Source: an uncultured Acidobacteriota bacterium
GTDB lineage: Bacteria > Acidobacteriota > Terriglobia > Terriglobales > Acidobacteriaceae
Length of the DNA stretch: 64,000 nucleotides
Direction: 5' to 3'
Assembly (NCBI GenBank): GCA_963703735.1
Contig: CAVPFM010000007.1
Span: 52,723 to 116,722, forward strand
Shown here: positions 54,332 through 64,000 of the stretch, piece after piece
Numbering within the stretch: position 1 is the first letter of the stretch
Layout of the letters: every line of letters starts with the position of its first letter
Made by a program: the position numbers and the translations under genes
Notes under the pieces: model-generated
What the model saw: the letters and a program-made list of their open reading frames with translations, nothing else
What the model was told of the DNA's origin: nothing
Databases searched by the model: none

Positions 54332-56308
54332 CTAGACTTCGTCTTGCTCTTTCAGTTTGGCGATTACGCCGAAATCTTCGAGCGTGGTTGTGTCGCCTTT
54401 CACGTCTCCGTTGGTGGCGAGTTCGCGGAGGAGACGGCGCATGATTTTTCCACTGCGCGTTTTGGGCAGACTGTCGGTGAAGCGGATGTCGTCAGGCTTG
54501 GCCAGCGCTCCGATTTCTTTTGCGACCCACTTGCGCAACTCTTCCTTCAGTTCGGCGGTGGGCTGTCTTCCCTGCTCCAGCGTTACGAAAGCGGAAATCG
54601 CCTGACCTTTTAGATCGTCGGGACGTCCGACTACCGCGGCTTCCGCGACCGCTTCGTGCGCCACCAGCGCGCTTTCGACTTCCATGGTGCTGAGGCGGTG
54701 TCCGCTGACGTTGAGGACGTCGTCGACGCGGCCCATGATCCAGAAATATCCGTCTTTGTCTTTGCGGGCGCCGTCACCGGTGAAGTACATGCCGGGAATC
54801 TGCGACCAGTAATTCTTCACGTAGCGATCAGGATCGCCGTAGACCGTGCGCAGCATGCCGGGCCACGGCCGCTTGATGACGAGAAATCCGCCCGAGCCCT
54901 CTGGGACAGGCTGGCCCTCCATGGTGACGATTTCAGCCACGACTCCCGGGAACGGGCGCGTTGCCGAGCCGGGCGTGGTCGCGATGGCGCCAGGGATCGG
55001 CGTGAGCATGATGTGACCAGTTTCGGTCTGCCACCAGGTATCAACGATGGGACAACGATTTCCGCCGATGGTTTCGCGATACCACATCCAGGCCTCGGGA
55101 TTGATGGGCTCACCGACGGTGCCGAGCAGGCGCAGGCTGGACATGTCGTGCTTCTTTGGCCACTGGTCACCCCACTTGATGAAGGTACGGATGGCCGTGG
55201 GCGCGGTGTAGAAGATGTTCACTTGGTGGCGGGCGATGATCGACCAGAAACGATCGGGCTCGGGACAATTCGGAGCACCTTCGTACATCAGGCTGGTAGC
55301 GCCGTTTTGCAGCGGGCCGTAGACGATGTAGCTGTGGCCGGTCACCCAACCGATGTCAGCTGTACACCAGTACGTGTCTTCCTCCTTGAGATCGAAAACC
55401 CACTTGGTGGTGAGATAGGTACCGACGGAATAGCCGCCGGTAGTGTGGACAACGCCCTTCGGTTTGCCGGTGGTGCCGGAGGTGTAGAGGATGTAGAGCG
55501 GGTGCTCGGCGTCGAGAGGCTCGGCGGGACAGACATCGGAGGCCTGGGCCATCAACTCGTGCCACCAGTGGTCGCGTCCGGCTTGCATGTGGATGGGAGT
55601 TCCGGTGCGCTTGTAGACAACGACGTGCTTCACGCTGGGACAAGACCTGAGCGCTTCTTCGACTGCGGGGAATAATTTCACTTCGGCGCCGCGCCGGTAA
55701 GAGCCATCCTGCGTGATGACGGCTGAGGCTTGCGAGTCATGAATGCGGTCGATGAGCGCGTTGGAAGAGAATCCGCCGAAGACGACGGTGTGCGGCGCTC
55801 CGATGCGGGCGCACGCCAGCATGGCGATGGGGAGCTCGGGCGTCATGCCCATGTAGATGGCGACGCGGTCTCCCTTTTTTACGCCGAGGGACTTGAGCAC
55901 ATTCGCGAACTTCTGCACTTCGCGATGGAGTTGCTGGTAGGTGAGGGTGCGGATTTCTCCGGGCTCGCTTTCCCAGATGATGGCGGCTTTATTTTTTCGC
56001 CAAGTCTCAACGTGGCGATCGAGACAGTTGTAGGAGAGATTGATCTGTCCGCCGACGAACCACTTTGCCCAGGGGCAATTCCACTCGAGCACCTTGTCCC
56101 ACTTCTTGAACCAGTGCAGTTCGCTGGCGACCCGCGACCAGAAAGTGTCGGGATCGTCGACCGATTCTTTGTAGAGGCGCTCGTATTCCGCGAGGCTCTT
56201 AATGTGGGCGTGACGGCTGAATTCGGCGGGCGGCTCGAATCTCCGCTGCTCCTGCAGGATGGAATCGATGTTGGTAGATTGCGTATCCATGAGTGCTTTG
56301 TCGGCCAT
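54332..56308 (-). CDS. acs: Acetyl-CoA synthetase
   Basis: 658 aa. AMP-binding motif [12 protein letters not shown]; [15 protein letters not shown]; C-terminal [12 protein letters not shown]. Confidence 0.95.
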
Positions 56309-56426: not shown

Positions 56427-57350
56427 TCACTTTTTCCCGATAAACCAGCCCAGCAGGTGGCTTTCGAATTGCTGCGGCGCTGTGGACATGGCACCGCAGT
56501 GATCGGCGCCGGGAACTTCCCATAGAACGGTCGCGGGGCTACGGGCGTGAATCAATCGGGAATGGCGGACGGGAATATTGCTATCGATTTGACCGTGAAT
56601 GGGCAGCACCGGGACGTGTGACGCGGCGACCGCGTCCGTTGGAGAGATCTCCCGCATATCTAGCTTGTACTTCCAGCGTGCGCGAAGGAATGCAATGTCG
56701 ACGAGCGGGCGGAGGAGAGTTCGGCCGATCCAGGGCCCGCGATGAAAGGGCTGCCCCATGCGATCGTAAGCGATCTCGCGAAAATCAGAGAACGAGGATT
56801 CGGCAACGACGGAACAGAACCGACTCTCACTTTGAAGAGACTGCAACAATTCTGCAGCTCCCATTGATTCGCCCAAGCCGTAGATGCAGCGCGGATGGAT
56901 TTCAGCAGAGAGTAAATCGAACCATTGATGGATGTCCTTGCGCTCGAGGAGTCCGTAGGTTGCCAAAGCGCCGCCGCTGAGGCCATGAGCGCGCGCATCG
57001 GGCAGGAGCACTGTGAATCCGTGCACGAGCAGGAACTCGGCGTATCCGGTCATTCCGAGGCGATTGTCGCCCAGGCCGTGAAGCAGCACGACAGCATCGC
57101 CGTTCGAGTGGACGGGACGCAGGAGCCAGGCACGCAGGACCGCGGCATCGGGAGCGGTGATGGATACATCCTCCATCTGCGCGTTCAGTTCGCCGACAGA
57201 TTGACGGAAACCGGCGACTTCTTGCTCTGTCAGTGGACGGCGAGCCGGACGTAGCGTCGCGTCCGCCAAATAAATGCCGCCGATCGAGCAAAGAGCGAAA
57301 TACATGGTGAATGCGAAGATCAGCCAACGCAGTCTGCGGCGGGAACGCAT
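56427..57350 (-). CDS. Membrane-anchored alpha/beta hydrolase
   Basis: 307 aa. N-terminal TM segment. HGLGDN; nucleophile elbow GESMG; C-terminal GADHCG. Confidence 0.75.
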   Translation of the reverse strand: MRSRRRLRWLIFAFTMYFALCSIGGIYLADATLRPARRPLTEQEVAGFRQSVGELNAQMEDVSITAPDAAVLRAWLLRPVHSNGDAVVLLHGLGDNRLGMTGYAEFLLVHGFTVLLPDARAHGLSGGALATYGLLERKDIHQWFDLLSAEIHPRCIYGLGESMGAAELLQSLQSESRFCSVVAESSFSDFREIAYDRMGQPFHRGPWIGRTLLRPLVDIAFLRARWKYKLDMREISPTDAVAASHVPVLPIHGQIDSNIPVRHSRLIHARSPATVLWEVPGADHCGAMSTAPQQFESHLLGWFIGKK

Positions 57351-57413: not shown

Positions 57414-57860
57414 TCAGAGGTCGAGGAAGCGAGACCGGGTGGCATCGGTTGGGAGCGGACAGGCATCGTAGCGGCCGAAGATGCGATAGCGGTGACGCGC
57501 TACGAGGCAGTAGGCCCAATCCCTGATTAGGTGCGGAAGAAGCCGCATTATGAGAGCGAGGTGCCTCCAAATTTCACCCAGTTGCTCGATTACAAATAGA
57601 ACCGCGTCGGAACGGGAGAGCAATGATCCGGCGGGATGCGGATCATTCGCAGAATTCTGGTTCGGATCGTAGTCAAGAACGACATAGATCGTGTCGAGGG
57701 CCGCTACATTTGGGTGCTGCCGGGCGAGGATGTCTTTAGCCAAGGAGCTCTGCAGCGAGGCGAACCGAAAAATACCTTCGCTGTCGCGCTTCAGGATGAA
57801 CTTGACCATGCGGTCGCAGAGTCCGCAAACGCCATCGTAAAGGATGAGGGGATGGCTCAA
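57414..57860 (-). CDS. DCC-family thiol-disulfide oxidoreductase (DUF393)
   Basis: 148 aa, TTG start. N-terminal LILYDGVCGLCD motif. Confidence 0.75.
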   Translation of the reverse strand: MSHPLILYDGVCGLCDRMVKFILKRDSEGIFRFASLQSSLAKDILARQHPNVAALDTIYVVLDYDPNQNSANDPHPAGSLLSRSDAVLFVIEQLGEIWRHLALIMRLLPHLIRDWAYCLVARHRYRIFGRYDACPLPTDATRSRFLDL

Positions 57861-58101
57861 CTGTTTTTGCGCTTCGGCTTCAGGGTCTTGTCCGCGAATC
57901 TATCAATAGCGGTACCAACTGAGCAAATTGGCGAGGTGGCCTCCCAGGAGGCGGCTGACTCGCCGGAGCGGCGGGTGATCGAAGCATTGGAGCTTGGACG
58001 AATTGGAAGCTGCGGCATCACCGGCGTCGTGCTTGGATCCGTCGGCGGAAAAGCTGGATTTGTATCCTTCTGGTAATTGCTGTCGCGTATCCATAAATTT
58101 C

Positions 58102-58968
58102 TTATTTCGCAAACTGGGAGAGCGGAACACTTCTCACCGCGTTCTCGTTCGCTTGATCGGCGAGGAGCCCGGTGGGGTATCCGAGGCATGCGAGTGTTGC
58201 GGCGGCATAGTGCTCAATGAGCGCAGTTTGCTTCTGATTCAGTTTTTGGCGCCAGCCCTGAGCGACTCCCGAACTGATCAGGCGGCCTTCATGCATTCGG
58301 CTTTTGGGCAAGGTGGCGGATTGATCTTCTTTCGCGCGCATCTTTTCGATGGAGTTGTTTGCGCAGGCGCGATGAATCGTGGCGGGATCGGCCGGCATTG
58401 CCAGGAACGTCAGCGCACGCGACATCGTCGACTCGACGTCGTTGCAGACATCCTCGAAACGCAATAGCAGCAAGTTGCCGCTTGCGGCTAAAGGAGAGTT
58501 GAGCCACTCCTGGATGTGATTCTGCCAAGCACCCCAACGCGATGTTTTCCCCTGCATGAAGGGCTCGATGTATCGGTCAAGGGCAGCCGAATCGAGAAGA
58601 TCCATGGCGGCTTCGCGCGCGAAACTGGAGAGCAGGACGTCGCGCACATCTCGGACGACATAGATTGCGCGACGGTACTTGCGGCGGTAGCGTTCGTGGG
58701 TTTTGATCAAGCGTCCGCCACCAGGAAGAAGCGGATGCGCATACACGTGGACGCCGATCTCAGGAACGAGGCGCTGTACATTTTCGAAAGAACACAGCGC
58801 GCCACTGATCGCTTCGGCGAGAGGAAAGCGCAGAAGCGTATTGCCGGACCTGGGATAGGAGGCCAGAAATACGTCACTCGAGTCCAAGCCAAGATGTCGA
58901 ACCCAAACCAGAGGAGCCCGCAGCGAGGTGCGCGAAACTCGCGCGCGAATTCTGATCACGGCCGACAC
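58102..58968 (-). CDS. Sulfotransferase (Sulfotransfer_1-like, PAPS-dependent)
   Basis: 288 aa. The GTG start directly abuts the upstream stop (TGAGTG). 5'-PSB-like loop SYPRSGNTLL; 3'-PB-like IYVVRDVRDVLLS. Confidence 0.8.
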   Translation of the reverse strand: MSAVIRIRARVSRTSLRAPLVWVRHLGLDSSDVFLASYPRSGNTLLRFPLAEAISGALCSFENVQRLVPEIGVHVYAHPLLPGGGRLIKTHERYRRKYRRAIYVVRDVRDVLLSSFAREAAMDLLDSAALDRYIEPFMQGKTSRWGAWQNHIQEWLNSPLAASGNLLLLRFEDVCNDVESTMSRALTFLAMPADPATIHRACANNSIEKMRAKEDQSATLPKSRMHEGRLISSGVAQGWRQKLNQKQTALIEHYAAATLACLGYPTGLLADQANENAVRSVPLSQFAK

Positions 58969-60066
58969 TCAGACCTCTTTAGCCCCAACGAGTTCAGACT
59001 GAGAACGGAGGGCGGCTTCGGTCTTCACGGAGGGAGTCGCGGGCGTATCTCGATACTTCCTCTTGCGATAGCCTTGAAGAAGCGATAGCGGCGCCATCGA
59101 GAAGCAAAATGCAGTGAAACTATCGAAGGCGCGCAGAACGCGGTAGGTCAGCTTGTCCTTAATGCGTTGCAGCAGGTCAGCAGAGTTTGCCTTCGAGGCG
59201 TCAGCGCTCGGATAGGGCGGCCAGTTGCCCACGAAATGCTTGCGCCAGAAAACCACGTAGCGATCGATCTTGGCGCGTAGATCGTTGTCGACGACGTTGG
59301 GACGTGGGCCCGCAACGATCTTGTCCCCTTTGACGAACGCATGATGCTGGCCTCCGTAGATAGCGGTGCGATCCGCGCCTTGCAGATTCGCCAGATCATC
59401 CTGATACGGAATCTGCAGAAAGCTGCAGACTTCCCGCATGACCGCCGGAGTGTCGCGCACCAAATCTTCATAACTGAGGGCATAGACCGGCTTGCCGTGT
59501 GCAACCAGCCAATCGTGCTGCTGCTTGTAGACTCCATAACCGATCAGTCCGCGGAGGGTTGATCCCGGACGCTTGAAGTAGGAGTTCCCGCTCTTGGCGG
59601 CACGCAAGATGCTGTTGGCCGTACCCGCCGGATCGCGCCAGACGATGATGAACTTGGCGTTGGGAAATGTCTCAGCCATTTCCTGCAGACGGTCGTAGTA
59701 GTTGGGAGATTTGTCGCCCCAGATCGTCGCACCTTTGCGGCGTGCGAATTCTTTGTGGACCGCTTCGAAAGCCTTCGGGAAATCCGCGATGCCCTGATTG
59801 AAGTCTTGGACGTTGAGGCCGTGACGGGTGAAGGCCTGATTCCAGAATTCCCAACGCTGTGCCCAGTCGCAGGAGCGTCCGGCCTTCAGGAATGCTGAGC
59901 GCAGCAGCAGCAAGTCGGCCTCATACATGAGTCCGACCTGCGGATGCTTGTTCAACAAGGCGTAGAGCAACGACGAACCCGACCGCCACATGCTGACCAC
60001 AAAGAGCGGGCCCAAAACCTGCCCCGTCGCAGTATGGGTGGTCGGTTTAGCTGATGGCGATGGCAT
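58969..60066 (-). CDS. Sulfotransferase family protein (Sulfotransfer_3-like)
   Basis: Start re-set to the ATG at 60066 (MPSPSAKP...). P-loop-like SMWRSGSSLLYALL; KFIIVWRDP. Hydrophobic/amphipathic C-terminal segment AFDSFTAFCFSMAPLSLL. Overlaps the upstream gene by 20 nt. Confidence 0.7.
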   Translation of the reverse strand: MPSPSAKPTTHTATGQVLGPLFVVSMWRSGSSLLYALLNKHPQVGLMYEADLLLLRSAFLKAGRSCDWAQRWEFWNQAFTRHGLNVQDFNQGIADFPKAFEAVHKEFARRKGATIWGDKSPNYYDRLQEMAETFPNAKFIIVWRDPAGTANSILRAAKSGNSYFKRPGSTLRGLIGYGVYKQQHDWLVAHGKPVYALSYEDLVRDTPAVMREVCSFLQIPYQDDLANLQGADRTAIYGGQHHAFVKGDKIVAGPRPNVVDNDLRAKIDRYVVFWRKHFVGNWPPYPSADASKANSADLLQRIKDKLTYRVLRAFDSFTAFCFSMAPLSLLQGYRKRKYRDTPATPSVKTEAALRSQSELVGAKEV

Positions 60067-60706
60067 GTTTCGCCTCAATGTCCGCGGAATGCGCGGGGAA
60101 CGCGACAACGGGATTCGCCTCCGAGGAACGCATCCTCCACGCGCCATCCACTTTTTCGATAAACGTCACGGTGCCGGTGGACGGTCCTCCCTGCACCGGA
60201 ACTCGATCACGATCTCCGTGTTCGAGGATGGTCTTCGCCGCAAGGAGATTTCGCACGTGGGTCACGGCAACGATATACCCTGATGATTGCTCCGCCAGAG
60301 CGAGCATCTCGGTCAGGCGTCGCGAATAGCGGGCGTAGAACTGATGAAACGATTCGCCGTTCGGAGCCGGCAAGTCTGGACGCTCGTTCAGCAGATTCAG
60401 AAACGGGATGATCTCCCGCAGCAGTTGGCCGCCGAATACGCCCAGGTTCCACGGGCGAAGTTCGTCTGTGGTGACCACGGACGCATTGGTAGTACGGCGA
60501 ATCGCTTCTGCCGTCTGGCCAGCTCGCTTCAAATCGGAAGAGTAGATAGCGGTGACGGGATAACCAGCGATCTGGAGAGCGGTTTCCTCCGCTTCCTGCA
60601 AGCCTTGCTCATCGAGCGGAATGTCGAGCCAAGCGCGCAAACGCTCTTCTTTGCCGTGACTGTTAAGGGGAGTATGTCCGTGCCGAATCAGAATAAGCTT
60701 ACCCAC
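60047..60706 (-). CDS. Histidine phosphatase superfamily (PGAM-like) protein
   Basis: Start re-set to the GTG at 60706, with AGGAG 8 nt upstream. RHG motif KLILIRHGHT; later VTHVRN. Confidence 0.75.
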   Translation of the reverse strand: MGKLILIRHGHTPLNSHGKEERLRAWLDIPLDEQGLQEAEETALQIAGYPVTAIYSSDLKRAGQTAEAIRRTTNASVVTTDELRPWNLGVFGGQLLREIIPFLNLLNERPDLPAPNGESFHQFYARYSRRLTEMLALAEQSSGYIVAVTHVRNLLAAKTILEHGDRDRVPVQGGPSTGTVTFIEKVDGAWRMRSSEANPVVAFPAHSADIEAKHAIAIS

Positions 60707-60827
60707 AGATTGGACTCCTATTGAGATTTGTATGGCGCACGACAATGACGGTGCTATATACGGGATGCAGAGGCGTCGTCATGGACGTGTTGAACCGGAG
60801 GGGGAATCGTCAATCTATAGTAGTCCG

Positions 60828-60870
60828 ATTGACATTATGGGAATGTAACACGTCAGTAACAATTGTCAAT
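60828..60870 (+). promoter_or_regulatory. Inverted repeat ATTGACA/TGTCAAT enclosing two phased hexamers GTAACA-N5-GTAACA
   Basis: Inverted-repeat arms at 60828-60834 and 60864-60870. GTAACA at 60845-60850 and 60856-60861 (plus strand). Lies in an AT-rich 272-nt gap upstream of the phosphatase-sulfotransferase genes. The hexamer and 6+5 phasing match the pst sites. Confidence 0.4.
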
Positions 60871-61017
60871 AGGAATTTGGTGGTAGAGATGGCACTTTTC
60901 ACCCTGTATCAAACACGCGATTCCCGCACTGGACGCCGCTTTCCGGCCGACTAAGCCCATGAGGCAGGACTGGCGTTTCACCCGCTGCGCGGTCTCGACT
61001 CCTTCAAGAAGACGAGG

Positions 61018-61398
61018 CTAGCCCGCCAAAAGAGCCACTCCGCCGGCAACCAAGGCGGCGGCGATCCAGCGGCGGCGGTCGACTTTCTCATGAAGGAAGA
61101 ACCTCGCGGCGAAGGCATTGCCGATGAAGGTAAGGGAGGCGGCGGCGGGGGCGACAAGGCTGACATCTCCCCAGGACAGCGCAAAGAGCAGGCTGAAAAA
61201 TGCGAGCGCCATGGCCGTCACGCCGAAAAAGAAATTCGGATTACCGAGAGTGCGGCCGATGACGGTCCCCAGTCCGCGGCGCTTCCATACATCGTGCACG
61301 TCGCCAACCTGCTTCATCGCACGGGCGAGGACGACGTCCCCGACGACGGAAAAGAAAACGACGACGAGAATCCCACCCCAGGTGTAGAGGCTCTTCAT
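61018..61398 (-). CDS. Half-size EamA/DMT-superfamily membrane protein (4 TM)
   Basis: 126 aa, four predicted TM helices. The ATG overlaps the upstream stop (ATGA at 61395-61398). Confidence 0.65.
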   Translation of the reverse strand: MKSLYTWGGILVVVFFSVVGDVVLARAMKQVGDVHDVWKRRGLGTVIGRTLGNPNFFFGVTAMALAFFSLLFALSWGDVSLVAPAAASLTFIGNAFAARFFLHEKVDRRRWIAAALVAGGVALLAG

Positions 61399-61844
61399 CG
61401 CTTGCCTCCGCCTGCGGCCGCCGAGACAACAACCTCTTGAGCATCTTCTTCCGCCTCGGGATGAGAGTGCGAGGTGAGGGCCGGACCTCCGGCAACGAAG
61501 CTGACGCCACCGGAAATGAGAGCTATGCCCATCCAGCGCAGCGGGCTGACTTGCTCGTGCAGGAAGAACTTGGCGACCAGGGCCAGCAGAACGTATCCGA
61601 GCGAAGTTGCGGGCAGGACATACGTGAGGTCCGCCCAGGAAAGCGCATTCATGTAGGAAGCGAAGAAGGCGAGCAGCAAGATAATGCCGACCGCGACCCA
61701 GGGATTGAGAACCGCTGAGATGACGCCCTGGAGATGATGGACGGAAATCCTGCCGGTCTGCTTCATCCCGTGCGAGAGCATGGAGTCACCAGCCGCTGCG
61801 AAGACGGTCACTCCAGCCAGCACCAGATACTTGCGGAAGGTCAA
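61395..61844 (-). CDS. Half-size EamA/DMT-superfamily membrane protein (4 TM), paralogue of the downstream gene
   Basis: 149 aa, TTG start. Shares motifs with its neighbour (GD..L...MKQ.G; LSW.D....P). Acidic C-terminal tail. Confidence 0.6.
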   Translation of the reverse strand: MTFRKYLVLAGVTVFAAAGDSMLSHGMKQTGRISVHHLQGVISAVLNPWVAVGIILLLAFFASYMNALSWADLTYVLPATSLGYVLLALVAKFFLHEQVSPLRWMGIALISGGVSFVAGGPALTSHSHPEAEEDAQEVVVSAAAGGGKR

Positions 61845-61850
61845 CGGCAG

Positions 61851-61916
61851 TTCTCAGTTCTCAGCTGTCAGTTCTCAGTCCGGTTTTCAACGTTAGATTA
61901 TCTGGACTGAGAACTG
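61851..61916. repeat. Four tandem heptamers overlapping a 13-bp inverted repeat
   Basis: TTCTCAG TTCTCAG CTGTCAG TTCTCAG (61851-61878). CAGTTCTCAGTCC (61869-61881) pairs with GGACTGAGAACTG (61904-61916). Lies between the hpnJ 3' end and the EamA-like start. Confidence 0.8.
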
Positions 61917-61977
61917 GTTCCAAGAATCAGGTACGCAAAATCAGTTCCCGGCTCACAAATTGTTACTCTGAGATTTG

Positions 61978-63463
61978 TTAGTCTGACATGCTCGCGAAGC
62001 CCGTCGGGTGCGACGCCGCAGCTTCATCGGCGTGCTTCTTGACCAGTTTGTTGCGGGCCGTGCGCAGCTTCCAGAATGTTCTTGCTTCTTTGTACAACCG
62101 CCTGCGCTCATCGCCGTTGAAGATCGCCTTCTTCACAATCCGCCAGGCAGCCTTCGGACGGAAGTAGTACTCGTCGTAGAAGCGATGGACCGCGCCGAGA
62201 ATTTCGTCAGCCGGCAATCCGGGATACTGGATGTGGGCGAGTTGATGTCCGCCCTCATCGACCATCTTGTTGTCTCCGACGATGAACCCGTTCTTCACCG
62301 CGTAATCGTAGAGCTCGGTGCCTGGATAGGCGTGCGCGACCGAAACCTGAATGGTTTCGACGTCGAGCCTCCTTCGCGAAGGCGATTGTATTGTTGATTG
62401 TCTCGGGAGTCTCGCCGGGCAGTCCCAGGATGAAGTCGCCGTGGACGACCAAGCCGAGCTTGTGGCAGTCCTTGGTAAACTGGCGGGCGCGCTCGACCGT
62501 CGCGCCTTTCTTGATGTTCTTGAGAATCTGCGGGTCGCCGGACTCGTAGCCAACGATTAAGAGTCGGCAGCCGGCTTCTTTCATTGCCTTCAGCGTTTCG
62601 AAATCGGTTGTAACGCGCGAGGTGCAGGACCAGGTCAGTCCGAGCGGCTTCAGCTTCGCGCAGAGTTCGATGGTGCGCGCCTTCTGGATGTTGAAAGTGT
62701 CATCGTCGAAGAAAAATTCCTTTACGTTCGGCCAGTATTCTTTGGCCTTCGCCATCTCAGCAGCGACATCGTCGGTGGAACGCTTGCGCCACGGATGTCC
62801 GCTCAAAGTCTGCGGCCAGAGGCAGAAGGTGCATTGCGCCGGGCAGCCTCGGGTGGTATAGAGCGAGACGTATGGATTGAGCAAGAATGGAACGTTGTAT
62901 CTGGAAACGTCAAGATCGCGCTTGTAAACTTCGGTGACATGCGGCAGAGCGTCGAGATCCTGAATCTGCGGAGCATCGGGATTGTGGACGATCTTGCCGT
63001 CCTTCCGGAAAGAAACTCCGGCAATCTCTTCAAGAGGCTTGCCTTTGGCATAGTCGACAATGGCGTAGTCGAATTCCTTGCGGCAAATGAAATCGATGTC
63101 GGGACAATCGCGGAGGGATTTTTCCGGGAGCACGCTGACGTGCGGACCGACGAAGGCAATCTTCATCCTGGGATTCGCTTGTTTAATCGCGCTCGAGATT
63201 CGAACGTCGCCGGGAAAACCAGGCGTCGACGTAAACAGCACGAGGAATTCGTAATCCTTAGCGATCTCGATGGTTTCCGCAGCGGAGATATGATGCGGAG
63301 GAGCATCGAGCAGCCGTGAGCCCTCCAACAGGCCGGCGGGATAAGCGAGCCAGACGGGATACCAGAAACTCTCAATTTCGCGGGTGGCGGGCCAACGAGA
63401 GCCGGCGCCTCCGTCGAAATTCTCAAATGAGGGAGGGTTCAGAAACAGTGTCTTTAAAGGCAT
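61978..63463 (-). pseudogene. hpnJ: HpnJ-like B12-binding radical SAM gene, interrupted by a 1-nt frameshift
   Basis: ORF 62255-63463 has the N-terminus MPLKTLFLNPPSFENFDGGAGSRW and the radical SAM motif CPAQCTFC. It loses homology after ...TIAFAKE. The sequence continues in the +1 frame (ORF 61978-62553) as LDVETIQVSVAHAYPGTELYDYA... The junction is at AAGGAGGCTC, about 62366-62374. Confidence 0.7.
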
Positions 63464-63678
63464 ATTGGGTATTGTCTATATTTTAGCATTGGAACGAGGT
63501 TTCCCCAGAAAGCGCCCGTGTTCTGGCAGGTTCCCCGTAATCCTTCCGCTGGTACGTAAATCCTTGATTTAACTGTACTAGCATCCTTCCGAAAAACAAA
63601 TGGCCTTAGGGTGAACCTATGTTTGGATGCAGTGAATGGGGAAAGGGCGCTGTGAGTGGGGATGGGATGCTCGGGACG

Positions 63679-64000
63679 CTACTGGGCTTCGTTGGCCGTT
63701 GGAACGCGGAAGGTGACGCCACGGTCGTCGTTGGCCTTCGCAGTGGCGGCGAGGTCCAGATTGGATAGCGGGATTTTCTGCGTGCGCCCGGGAGTGAAAT
63801 TCCAGAGAGTTTGTCCGACGATCGCGTAGTTCTGAATTTCCTGTTGGCGCTGGTCGCGGAAAACCAGGACTGTGGGAGGAACCATTGAACTCGGCTGCGG
63901 ATCGCTGCTTGCGGCTCTCGGGGCAGGACGGGGTGCCGATCTGTGAGCGTAGAGATCCTGATCGCCGTCGGCTTCCTCCTGGCGCATCATCTGCTGCTGT
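63679..64000 (-). CDS. 3' part of a conserved hypothetical protein; frame open to the window edge
   Basis: The frame stays open from 64000 (..QQQMMRQEEADGDQD..). The C-terminal part VLVFRDQRQQEIQNYAIVGQTLWNF...LDLAATAKANDDRGVTFRVP looks like a folded domain. No family assigned. Confidence 0.45.
   Translation of the reverse strand, partial: QQQMMRQEEADGDQDLYAHRSAPRPAPRAASSDPQPSSMVPPTVLVFRDQRQQEIQNYAIVGQTLWNFTPGRTQKIPLSNLDLAATAKANDDRGVTFRVPTANEAQ

Follow-up and report, generated by a model that had tools for sequence, protein, structure and literature searches.

A conserved phosphatase-sulfotransferase operon adjoining a hopanoid-associated gene module in an acidobacterial genome

Does a run of minus-strand genes that brings together a hopanoid-associated radical SAM gene, two half-size membrane protein genes, a histidine phosphatase and two sulfotransferases encode one envelope-modifying pathway, or have separate units come to lie side by side? 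The question is raised by a 64,000-nucleotide stretch of DNA from an uncultured Acidobacteriota bacterium, the whole of which is referred to here as the window. A sequence-only reading had suggested one pathway, in which a lipid or glycan head group, possibly hopanoid-derived, would lose its phosphate, be sulfated and then cross the membrane, as a phosphate-to-sulfate swap under phosphate starvation. Its gene order, gene families, overlaps and common strand agree with the ORF coordinates and with Pfam and NCBIfam. The region starting at 56427 and ending at 63463 probably holds two unrelated functional units that are neighbors by chance in this lineage, the second being an autonomous sulfation operon. 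The features are as follows:

56427..57350, minus strand: alpha/beta hydrolase, membrane-anchored (Pfam Abhydrolase_6 and Hydrolase_4; one N-terminal TM segment)
57414..57860, minus strand: DCC1-like thiol-disulfide oxidoreductase (DCC; Pfam 86.5 bits)
58102..58968, minus strand: STB, Sulfotransfer_1 (SULT-like) sulfotransferase (Pfam 92.6 bits; GTG start abuts the STA stop)
58969..60066, minus strand: STA, Sulfotransfer_3-type sulfotransferase (Pfam 113.6 bits; 20-nt overlap with the end of HisPhos)
60047..60706, minus strand: HisPhos, His_Phos_1, first gene of the operon (Pfam 109.9 bits; alternative TTG start at 60745)
60801..60851, minus strand: conserved 5' element, TTACA ... TAAtGTCnAT ... 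TACTATAG ... C-rich box (alignment A5, model R1)
60842..60869, minus strand: sigma-70-like promoter, TTGACA-16-TGnTACATT (10/12 promoter positions, extended -10)
61018..61398, minus strand: DMT2, second half-size EamA protein (Pfam EamA 33.6 bits)
61395..61844, minus strand: DMT1, half-size EamA-type membrane protein, first of the paralogous pair (Pfam EamA 25.3 bits)
61851..61930, minus strand: stable hairpin in the hpnJ-DMT1 spacer, 13-bp stem (MFE -38.3 kcal/mol, z = -2.6)
61978..63463, minus strand: hpnJ, hopanoid-associated B12-binding radical SAM gene (TIGR03471; Pfam B12-binding and Radical_SAM)

Comparison of 61 related loci, selected by pattern, all from Acidobacteriota and mostly from Terriglobia, divides the region into three parts: hpnJ with the two DMT genes, HisPhos-STA-STB (the triad), and the DCC gene with the hydrolase gene. 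HisPhos lies immediately 5' of STA in 38 of the 61 loci, with STA identity down to ~48 %. A second gene of sulfotransferase type follows STA in 29 of these 38, being STB in 16 and c3 in 13; the c3 protein has no Pfam match, and statistical comparison gave no demonstration that it is a sulfotransferase. HisPhos and STA overlap by 20 nt in 12 loci and by 4 nt in nine, almost every locus has 0, -1 or +2 nt between STA and STB, and in one locus (P0102/L068) HisPhos is followed by a 625-aa STA-STB fusion. The phosphatase and sulfotransferase genes are co-conserved and tightly coupled, which supports this part of the sequence-only reading. In the window, the 20-nt overlap and the abutting stop and start would couple translation along this three-gene operon. 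Furthermore, the constant adjacency and the natural fusion suggest that STA and STB share an acceptor or a pathway, acting on the same molecule or on successive intermediates, while HisPhos would be a pathway-specific partner of STA.

The supposed connection between the triad and the hpnJ-DMT-DMT genes is not supported. Only 9 of the 61 loci (L001-6, L008, L010 and L013), those of the closest relatives, where Acs is 92-98 % identical, have hpnJ and the DMT genes less than 10 kb from the triad. The hpnJ-DMT-DMT block is itself widespread in Terriglobia: DMT1 is kept directly downstream of hpnJ, the full adjacency recurs in L062, L065, L066 and L067, and in all three other genomes examined (L065, L066 and L067) no triad adjoins it. 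L065 and the triad locus L011 share a single 859-kb contig, on which they lie ~40 kb apart in opposite orientation. The DCC and hydrolase genes, counted as cluster members in the earlier reading, are local backbone genes outside the conserved operon; L067 has both beside hpnJ-DMT-DMT with the triad absent, DCC is missing from triad loci L004, L005, L006, L010 and L013, and the presence of the hydrolase varies among triad loci. hpnJ likewise is part of a neighboring module and not of the sulfation operon. As the triad is conserved across soil Acidobacteria and the hopanoid gene is adjacent only in this lineage, HisPhos-STA-STB is a real, uncharacterized sulfation pathway that probably does not modify hopanoids. 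A link between the triad and hopanoids is not supported, although the adjacency in the nine closest relatives may reflect a lineage-specific functional link with hpnJ-DMT-DMT.

The DNA between the two units contains what would be the triad's own control region. The gap between DMT2 and HisPhos has the length first given, 272 nt (60746-61017), with the TTG start, and measures 311 nt if HisPhos starts at the GTG at 60706; this codon has GGAG 8 nt before it and was called as the start in L062. Its reported AT-richness is only mild (GC 0.526 vs ~0.58 in the flanks). Triad loci both near and far in relationship have the sequence TTGACA-N15-19-TAnnnT ~123-177 nt 5' of HisPhos, and transcription from the sigma-70-like promoter would run through the conserved 5' element. 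Sequence model R1 of this element gives 30 matches (E <= 1) in 1.23 Mb, a single one of them in the window, and all 30 lie on the coding strand just 5' of HisPhos or the operon's first gene. The element, which is confined to the triad, matches no Rfam family, is not recognizable as a Pho box and would act as an operator or within the 5' UTR; relatives do not share the small ORF of the leader. The hexamers described as Pho-box-like do exist as a direct repeat, TGTTAC-N5-TGTTAC (60845-60861), but they lie inside the sigma-70-like promoter, and the upstream copy is only partly kept in relatives. The repeat fits the Bacillus-type TTAACA-N5-TTAACA with 2 mismatches, one of four such matches in the window, and no proteobacterial Pho box (CTGTCAT-N4-CTGTCAT, <=3 mismatches) is present in the gap. 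Judged by sequence, Pho regulation of the region is not supported.

Both sulfotransferases keep PAPS-binding and catalytic motifs, of which the PAPS-binding ones were a test set by the sequence-only reading, and on these motifs would be PAPS-dependent O-sulfotransferases. In STA, for which 923 homologues were found, the invariant residues are RSGS (5'-PSB), WRDP..N (3'-PB) and E49/D51. Its AF2 model (pLDDT 80) has the CurM/OLS sulfotransferase domains and tyrosylprotein sulfotransferases (TPSTs) as nearest folds. Beyond these, STA has a conserved helical hairpin near its C-terminus (residues ~298-337), after which comes a basic cluster. STB conserves PRSGxT, THE and RDxRDVxxS, and in the PDB it matches SULT2B1 and Teg best. 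All three triad products are predicted to be soluble and cytoplasmic, and no transmembrane segment was detected in STA (maximum KD19 1.16). The putative chemistry of the triad as a whole rests on family membership and motifs.

HisPhos retains the RHG/Arg/His core, with R8, H9, R61 and H150 invariant in alignments A4 and A6. The position of the canonical catalytic Glu is occupied by an invariant Pro (LRPWNLG), which in alignment falls on the LRE-motif Glu of PhoE (1EBB). Given this replacement, HisPhos might work slowly or atypically as a phosphatase, serve as a phosphotransferase, or act only as a binding subunit. Among solved structures it is closest to the metabolite phosphatases PspA, GpgP Rv2419c, PhoE and CobC, and its AF2 model (pLDDT 81) is nearest to PspA, GpgP and PhoE (TM 0.7-0.8). 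It scores far below every NCBIfam equivalog cut-off (CobC, 75.6 vs 162.9 bits). By analogy with synthase/phosphatase pairs whose phosphatase completes the product (GpgS/GpgP and PspA-type phosphoserine phosphatases), we tentatively prefer a model in which HisPhos dephosphorylates the acceptor itself, whether sulfation comes first or second. This model is weakened by the lack of any co-conserved enzyme that would make a phosphorylated precursor. Dephosphorylation plus sulfation by the triad alone is possible. A less probable alternative is that HisPhos hydrolyses PAP, the by-product of sulfotransfer, as CysQ does in other sulfotransferase clusters; this is weakened in turn by a literature search that found no PAP phosphatase of the histidine-phosphatase superfamily.

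The acceptor is more likely to be a common metabolite or a sugar or glycan than a hopanoid. The 137 proteins flanking 24 diverse, spread-out triad loci match 143 Pfam families, none of which recurs in more than 7 of the proteins; hopanoid, EamA and PAPS-synthesis families are absent from the 25 most frequent. Around the same 24 loci, no family for hopanoids, DMT proteins or envelope export recurred, nor did any glycosyltransferase, polymerase or exporter. Additionally, no PAPS-synthesis gene was found closer than 10 kb to a HisPhos-linked locus, and a scan with one APS kinase motif was negative. The lean toward a sugar or glycan comes from STA relatives without HisPhos, a subclade of which lies beside sulfate adenylyltransferase with HD and HIT genes in two different arrangements, while others adjoin RmlC/RmlD or, in the outgroup, sit inside Wzy/GT4/WecG/epimerase clusters.

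A rival proposal is that the triad sulfates an envelope glycan (EPS, O-antigen or an LPS-core sugar) in the cytoplasm, with HisPhos replacing CysQ as a PAP/PAPS 3'-phosphatase that relieves product inhibition. The sugar-related surroundings of the STA relatives, the sulfate adenylyltransferase and the HD and HIT nucleotide hydrolases beside the subclade without HisPhos, the occurrence of cysQ in sulfated-capsule and Bacteroides sulfotransferase clusters and the lack of a co-conserved precursor-making enzyme are all consistent with it. It is nonetheless unlikely, since triad loci have no recurrent glycosyltransferase, polymerase or exporter, STA has no membrane segment, the nearest characterized HisPhos relatives act on phosphoserine/phosphoglycerate-type metabolites and not on nucleotides, and no PAP phosphatase precedent emerged for the superfamily. 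A single hopanoid pathway, in which an HpnJ-made head group would lose phosphate, receive two sulfates and be flipped by the DMT pair upon phosphate starvation, has been largely refuted by the co-conservation test and has very little probability left. The promoter and triad-specific 5' element lie between the modules, the modules are separate beyond the closest relatives and even within one genome, and the gap shows no recognizable Pho box of the proteobacterial type. Hopanoid synthesis is not known to pass through a phosphorylated intermediate. These points outweigh the co-directional adjacency of all genes in the window and nine close relatives, and also the hydroxysteroid/cholesterol SULT2 enzymes as best solved relatives of STB, as that likeness is confined to the PAPS-binding half (residues 96-249). 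Also in favor of this pathway, both bacteriohopanepolyol production and hpnJ are documented for Acidobacteria of subdivisions 1 and 3 (PMC5462960).

Two further readings follow from the relatives of STA, and both are highly improbable. In one, sulfation is an activation step that yields no stable sulfated product, sulfate being eliminated as a leaving group as with the CurM/olefin-synthase sulfotransferase domains and LGS1. CurM/OLS enzymes are indeed the best matches of STA in sequence (E = 1e-6) and in fold (E = 3e-7, TM 0.43-0.55), and LGS1 is matched as well, but identity is weak at 19-22 %, TPSTs score almost equally, nothing conserved nearby, be it a thioesterase, ACP, PKS or another partner, would exploit the leaving group, and two serial sulfotransferases are hard to rationalize. 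In the other reading, which is just as remote, STA is a TPST-like tyrosine sulfotransferase and HisPhos a pHis, pTyr or pSer phosphatase of the same protein or peptide. In both fold and sequence, human and tick TPSTs come second among the neighbors of STA, the protein phosphatases SixA, Sts-1 and PGAM5 belong to the histidine-phosphatase superfamily, and HisPhos matches SixA weakly. However, its fold neighbors are metabolite phosphatases, the surroundings lack a conserved gene for a precursor peptide, protease or exporter, and the small leader ORF is unconserved.

Among known systems, the Bacteroides cholesterol-sulfotransferase cluster (cysC, cysDN, symporter, cysQ) and the Cobetia marina sulfated-capsule cluster resemble the triad in joining sulfotransferase and phosphatase genes in a compact co-transcribed unit, and STB has the full SULT-type motif set. 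Sulfotransferase clusters carrying the PAP phosphatase gene cysQ are documented (PMC11766843; PMC11503954). In contrast to these two clusters, whose phosphatases are of the CysQ/inositol-monophosphatase family, the triad has a phosphatase of the histidine-phosphatase superfamily, two sulfotransferases of different Pfam families, and no linked cysC, cysDN or sulfate transporter. As in two-step metabolite pathways where a histidine phosphatase follows a transferase, such as glucosylglycerate synthesis by GpgS/GpgP and those of PspA-type phosphoserine phosphatase and CobC, HisPhos is genetically coupled to a group-transfer enzyme, but here that enzyme is a sulfotransferase rather than a glycosyltransferase, and the catalytic Glu is replaced. 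CurM/OLS and TPSTs for STA, and SULT2 and the Teg/StaL glycopeptide sulfotransferases for STB, share the fold and the 5'-PSB and 3'-PB motifs at an identity of only 17-25 %, which justifies no substrate inference; the STA hairpin is an extra feature.

The first unit would comprise hpnJ and a heterodimer-type pair of half-size DMT proteins. DMT1 and DMT2 share 38-40 % identity and overlap by ATGA at stop and start. Like ArnE/ArnF, the heterodimeric flippase of undecaprenyl-phospho-L-Ara4N, they are adjacent, paralogous, overlapping genes for proteins of ~125-150 aa. They are not Arn orthologues, as ArnE scores reach only 25 bits (25.5 for DMT1) against a cut-off of 92, and their conserved partner is hpnJ rather than arn genes or sulfotransferases; the EamA score of DMT1 also falls below its cut-off of 28.2 bits. 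The hairpin in the hpnJ-DMT1 spacer has sub-threshold Rfam matches to miRNA-precursor hairpins. Compared with the HpnI/HpnK/HpnJ route to bacteriohopanetetrol cyclitol ether, hpnJ here has no hpnI, hpnK or other hpn gene beside it; upstream lie genes for an unknown 261-aa protein, cytochrome c and a PolyA_pol-family protein. Acidobacteria of subdivisions 1 and 3 have been reported to be without hpnK (PMC5462960). The assignment of the gene as HpnJ-like was upheld, its N part alone passing the TIGR03471 equivalog cut-off (644.4 vs 577.6 bits; C part 129.6 bits), but it is no single ORF in this assembly, where an extra G at 62369, located against L062, breaks the frame. In the L062 contig, which is 99.92 % identical, hpnJ is intact and encodes 494 aa.

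The gene list of the sequence-only reading, all of it on the minus strand, was borne out by the ORF listing together with Pfam and NCBIfam scans, and the observation is correct in essence. The genes and the short names used for them here are as follows.

61978-63463, minus strand: hpnJ, matching TIGR03471 (644 bits for the N-terminal part alone; cut-off 577.6)
61395-61844, minus strand: DMT1, half-size EamA protein
61018-61398, minus strand: DMT2, half-size EamA protein
60047-60745, minus strand: HisPhos, branch-1 histidine phosphatase
58969-60066, minus strand: STA, Sulfotransfer_3 protein
58102-58968, minus strand: STB, Sulfotransfer_1 protein
57414-57860, minus strand: DCC, DCC1-like protein
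56427-57350, minus strand: alpha/beta hydrolase with one N-terminal TM segment

In the window, HisPhos and STA overlap by 20 nt and the stop of STA is abutted by the GTG of STB. A more likely start for HisPhos than 60745 is the GTG at 60706, which has GGAG 8 nt upstream and is also the start called in L062, a contig from another assembly that is 99.92 % identical to the window. The gap between DMT2 and HisPhos, described earlier as AT-rich, is so only mildly (GC 0.526). An extra G at 62369 splits hpnJ of the window into two frames, while hpnJ of L062 is intact at 494 aa. L062 lacks 1 nt of the DCC gene, at window position 57749, and here two short-read assemblies, neither of which extends to hpnJ, side with the window. 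Both indels are probably long-read assembly errors. Over 15 kb compared between the window and L062, all 10 substitutions cluster within 1.2 kb of acs, the gene for acetyl-CoA synthetase (54975-56161), which may reflect a recombined tract or a mixture of strains in this gene.

Homology searches found 923 relatives of STA at E <= 1e-5 and 627 of HisPhos. Alignment of the STA homologues against one genome per GTDB species yielded 61 loci, all from Acidobacteriota MAGs, among them Terriglobia (Terriglobales), many of these labelled Candidatus Sulfotelmatobacter, and a few Bryobacteraceae. Co-conservation was then read from tblastn of all window proteins against these loci, 10 kb either side of STA. 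HisPhos stands immediately upstream of STA in 38 of the 61 loci, with STA identity down to about 48 %, and in a neighbor-joining tree of STA proteins this linkage is found on nearly all ingroup branches. STB follows STA directly in 15 of the 38 HisPhos-STA loci, and in another of them, L026, it lies upstream of HisPhos. Clustering of all ORFs placed another protein family, c3, where STB would stand in 13 of the remaining HisPhos-STA loci, so that a third gene of sulfotransferase type (STB or c3) is present in 29 of the 38. The junctions are similarly constant: HisPhos and STA overlap by 20 nt in 12 loci and by 4 nt in 9, and with few exceptions the STA/STB junction measures 0, -1 or +2 nt. Furthermore, a metagenomic contig (L068, 5274-7151) encodes a natural STA-STB fusion of 625 aa (P0102), with a HisPhos gene before it and a Na/H exchanger gene after it. 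The adjacency counts, the conserved junctions and the fusion show that the phosphatase-sulfotransferase-sulfotransferase triad, whose conservation across genomes the sequence-only reading had proposed to test, is a genuine unit and much more than genes that are neighbours by chance.

Both sulfotransferases were assigned on a Pfam score above the cut-off, an xRSGxT/S loop, an RxxxxxS 3'-phosphate segment and a catalytic base, and in both the PAPS-binding residues, the lack of which would have counted against the earlier claim, are present. STA is a predicted PAPS-dependent sulfotransferase (Pfam, 113.6 bits) with invariant R28-S29-G30-x-S32 (5'-phosphosulfate loop), W143-R144-x-P146...N151 (3'-phosphate segment) and E49/D51. 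Its AF2 model (pLDDT 80) has a sulfotransferase fold, the nearest neighbours of which are the sulfotransferase domains of CurM/OLS and the TPSTs, all of them distant (TM 0.4-0.55, 17-22 % identity). A membrane anchor was rejected for STA, as no segment reaches KD19 >= 1.6, and the helical hairpin and basic cluster conserved at its C-terminus would be a peripheral element at most. STB is likewise a predicted PAPS-dependent sulfotransferase (Pfam, 92.6 bits), with P39-R40-S41-G42-T44, T90-H91-E92 (containing the catalytic His) and R106..R109-D110-V111..S114 when aligned to SULT2B1. Its best solved relatives are SULT2B1, SULT2A1 and Teg/StaL, in alignments mainly over the PAPS-binding half.

Neither enzyme could be placed with a named family. 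There is no equivalog-level match to NodH/NoeE, Stf0 or other named bacterial sulfotransferases (for NoeE the score is 19.3 bits, the cut-off being 500), STB has zero NCBIfam matches, and Stf0, Stf1 and Stf9 are distant fold matches only (E >= 1.8e-3). Fold searches with STA and HisPhos against PDB and BFVD recovered generic family neighbours only and nothing at substrate level. The c3 family comprises ORFs of 250-355 aa that follow STA (L018, L027, L034, L037, L039-L042, L045, L046, L049, L056 and L061) and match nothing in Pfam, NCBIfam or PDB. Three collinear motifs of c3, GRxGTTF, VIVRxPExxxLS and F(D/E)Q..NF, resemble those of sulfotransferases, but hhalign gives a probability of only 1-6 %, short of statistical significance. 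The c3 family may be an unrecognised, very divergent sulfotransferase family.

HisPhos belongs to the branch-1 superfamily (PF00300) with 109.9 bits against a cut-off of 21.7, and alignments of 27 and of 18 orthologues show no variation at R8, H9, G10, R61 and H150, the residues of the RHG motif with the nucleophilic His and of the phosphate pocket with its two Arg and second His. The AF2 model (pLDDT 81) aligns at TM 0.7-0.8 to PspA-type phosphoserine phosphatase, PhoE, dPGMs and the glucosyl-3-phosphoglycerate phosphatase Rv2419c (GpgP). In PhoE and dPGM, the Glu of the 'LRE..G' segment (Glu83 in PhoE) is the general acid/base. When HisPhos is aligned to 1EBB, this canonical catalytic position is occupied by Pro (LRPWNLG), invariant in all orthologues, and the same Pro is found in 72 of the 150 nearest relatives at the level of 50 %-identity clusters (P0241-P0390). 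The clade with this Pro (LRPW[ND]xG) includes fusions to Phage_portal_3, Portal_Mu, XkdF-type prohead protease and methyltransferase domains, some members are parts of proteins as long as 5,803 aa, and its matching PHROG, phrog_12933, is without an annotated function. As a phosphatase that lacks the textbook Glu and belongs to a clade fused by phages to portal and prohead proteins, HisPhos has a chemistry that may be informative beyond this operon.

The linkage of the triad to hopanoid genes and to the DMT pair, in contrast to the triad itself, does not extend beyond the closest relatives. Both hpnJ and the DMT pair lie within 10 kb in only 9 of the 61 loci (L001-6, L008, L010 and L013), and these are the closest relatives, with acetyl-CoA synthetases 92-98 % identical. 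In three other genomes the modules are separate. The hpnJ-DMT-DMT locus L065 and the triad locus L011 are about 40 kb apart and in opposite orientation on the same 859-kb contig, L066 and L067 have the block without the triad beside it, and in L067 DCC and the hydrolase follow hpnJ-DMT-DMT by a few genes without the triad. DCC is absent from L004, L005, L006, L010 and L013. The simplest history these arrangements suggest is that, in one lineage, the triad was inserted into the backbone hpnJ-DMT-DMT ... DCC-hydrolase-acs at a junction that is variable.

The flanks of 24 triad loci spread over the phylogeny contributed 137 proteins, which matched 143 families in Pfam, none of them in more than 7 proteins. 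The commonest (SHMT, ECF sigma/anti-sigma, response regulators and Na/H exchanger) reflect local synteny. None of the top 25 families around these 24 loci is squalene-hopene cyclase, radical-SAM/B12, EamA, polysaccharide-export or PAPS-synthesis, and a hopanoid cluster as the home of the triad thus finds no support in the flanks. It is very improbable that the acceptor of the triad is a hopanoid. Most of the integrated proposal, a 'phosphate-to-sulfate swap' on a hopanoid, is not supported: the triad exists as a unit and its sulfotransferase motifs are intact, but the hopanoid and DMT links are limited to the nine loci and the gap contains no proteobacterial Pho box. What is left of the proposal is that dephosphorylation and sulfation may be coupled. 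Neither annotation nor citation of this locus for hopanoid sulfation is warranted.

Apart from the sulfation operon, the hpnJ-DMT-DMT block is worth attention as a candidate hopanoid head-group transporter. HpnJ has the B12-binding and Radical_SAM architecture in Pfam, and its N- and C-terminal ORFs score 644.4 and 129.6 bits against the TIGR03471 equivalog (cut-off 577.6). Against Pfam EamA (cut-off 28.2), DMT2 scores 33.6 bits and DMT1 25.3 bits; the two were assigned together as a half-size DMT pair, are 38-40 % identical and overlap by ATGA. Identity with ArnE/ArnF was rejected, since the pair reaches only 25.5 and 24.6 bits against the PRK15051 cut-off of 92, and its neighbours are hpnJ and an uncharacterised protein instead of arn genes. 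DMT1 has 5,939 homologues, and the best 120 of these are all at least 75 % identical. The order of a protein of about 250-270 aa, hpnJ, DMT and DMT was found in three of three genomes looked up (L065, L066 and L067), none of which has a phosphatase or sulfotransferase after the DMT pair. With L062 included, this order is kept in every Terriglobia genome examined, whether or not sulfotransferases are present; in the window, the first protein is cut by the window end, leaving an ORF at 63679-63990. Neither hpnI nor hpnK lies near the block in the window (61018-63990) or in these four contigs. The half-size pair may transport or flip the product of HpnJ. The spacer that separates hpnJ from DMT1 measures 133 nt and has a predicted long, stable hairpin with a 13-bp stem at 61851-61930 (z = -2.6), with sub-threshold matches to miRNA precursors in Rfam.

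Of the 7.7 kb scanned for sigma-70-like sites, the gap upstream of HisPhos has the best one, TTGACA-16-TG-n-TACATT (60869-60842). Sites of the form TTGACA-N15-19-TAnnnT recur at about 123-177 nt before HisPhos, in distant as well as close triad loci, and are followed downstream by conserved blocks: TTACA, TAA(T)GTCnAT, TACT(A/G)TAG and a C-rich box. In the window, these blocks make up an element of about 50 nt at 60801-60851 (TTACA ... TAAtGTCnAT ... TACTATAG ... CTCCCC), which occupies the equivalent position in 29 loci. A sequence-only model of 52 positions, searched in 1.23 Mb made up of the window and 64 loci, gave 30 matches at E <= 1. All were on the coding strand, immediately before HisPhos or whichever gene opens the operon, 11 were in loci outside the training set, and exactly one was in the window. 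Given that the element occurs nowhere else in the DNA searched, which amounts to 1.2 Mb only, a dedicated regulator fits better than a global regulon.

The element may be an operator or a 5'-UTR element, with a DNA operator at least as likely. Its sequence blocks are conserved, while its hairpins are lineage-specific, with arms that differ and are non-homologous between lineages. A riboswitch or anti-SD leader was rejected, as the C-rich box pairs with the SD in only some loci in single-sequence folds; the differing arms and this patchy pairing do not support a common RNA structure. A leader peptide (ATG TCA ATC ...) was also rejected, not being conserved as an ORF (for example, L006 has TGA). 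No Rfam family was matched across 57.3-64 kb, the gap included, where the only hits were sub-threshold ones to miRNA-like hairpins. The 'Pho-box-like hexamers' noticed earlier correspond to a TGTTAC-N5-TGTTAC repeat at 60845-60861, with 2 mismatches to a Bacillus-type PhoP repeat. Relatives keep the upstream copy of this repeat only in degenerate form, and the gap has no proteobacterial Pho box (CTGTCAT-N4-CTGTCAT). No acidobacterial Pho box is known to have been defined. The phosphate-starvation part of the earlier interpretation is not supported by these patterns.

The triad is probably a self-contained operon of cytoplasmic enzymes, in which two cooperating sulfotransferases are joined by a phosphatase that is the most constant partner of STA. 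PAPS would be the sulfate donor, and STA and STB would act on one acceptor or on successive intermediates. For HisPhos, a nearly even chance is given to dephosphorylation of the acceptor, before or after sulfation. The nearest characterised relatives of HisPhos complete two-step syntheses by dephosphorylation, and the adjacency of HisPhos and STA is stricter than would be expected of a housekeeping scavenger, both of which argue for this role. Somewhat unlikely is that HisPhos clears PAP, the by-product of sulfotransfer. In favour of PAP removal, cysQ is documented as a member of other sulfotransferase clusters (PMC11766843, PMC11503954), and no precursor-making enzyme is co-conserved with the triad. 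It is further favoured by one subclade of STA relatives without HisPhos (L025, L029, L030, L035, L043 and L044), which adjoins sulfate adenylyltransferase (NCBIfam, 462 bits). In two gene arrangements, L029, L030, L035 and L044 also have an HD phosphohydrolase, an uncharacterised 261-aa protein and either one or two HIT proteins. No APS kinase was seen near this subclade, and a scan of all loci for the APS-kinase P-loop motif, a weak test, was negative. HisPhos itself is not a CysQ-type (inositol-monophosphatase) enzyme, the only phosphatase of the operon being of the His_Phos_1 family. The rest of the probability falls to a role of HisPhos other than dephosphorylating the acceptor or clearing PAP.

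Extending dephosphorylation of the acceptor, a Terriglobia-wide pathway can be proposed that would exchange a phospho for a sulfo group on the same metabolite or envelope sugar, with the Glu-less HisPhos working with two sulfotransferases, maybe in a complex, under a dedicated cis-element; as a whole this is rather unlikely. The triad is of the same kind as PAPS-type sulfation gene clusters and differs from them by its atypical histidine-phosphatase partner. The families are ordinary, and the combination of HisPhos with two sulfotransferases, and its breadth, are undescribed in the literature searched, where no report was found joining a sulfotransferase and a histidine phosphatase in Acidobacteria or Sulfotelmatobacter and none on a histidine phosphatase and PAP. 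Terriglobia are among the most abundant bacteria of soil and peat, and Sulfotelmatobacter-type lineages are implicated in peatland sulfur cycling. The triad is a sulfation operon, so far uncharacterised, that is widespread in these dominant bacteria of the soil, and it would be a new sink for activated sulfate. With relatives of STA and HisPhos in such numbers, its conservation suggests that Terriglobia make a sulfated metabolite, glycan or lipid that has gone unrecognised.

Among these acceptors, the STA family tilts to sugars or glycans because of its distant relatives, although the triad loci themselves have no RmlC/RmlD or Wzy/GT4/WecG/epimerase genes. The distant STA-like genes (L050, L053-L055 and L059; L028 and L032) are found in Wzy/GT4/WecG/epimerase clusters or directly before rmlC-rmlD, sometimes two to a locus, and their gene neighbourhoods point to sulfated polysaccharides in some Acidobacteriota.
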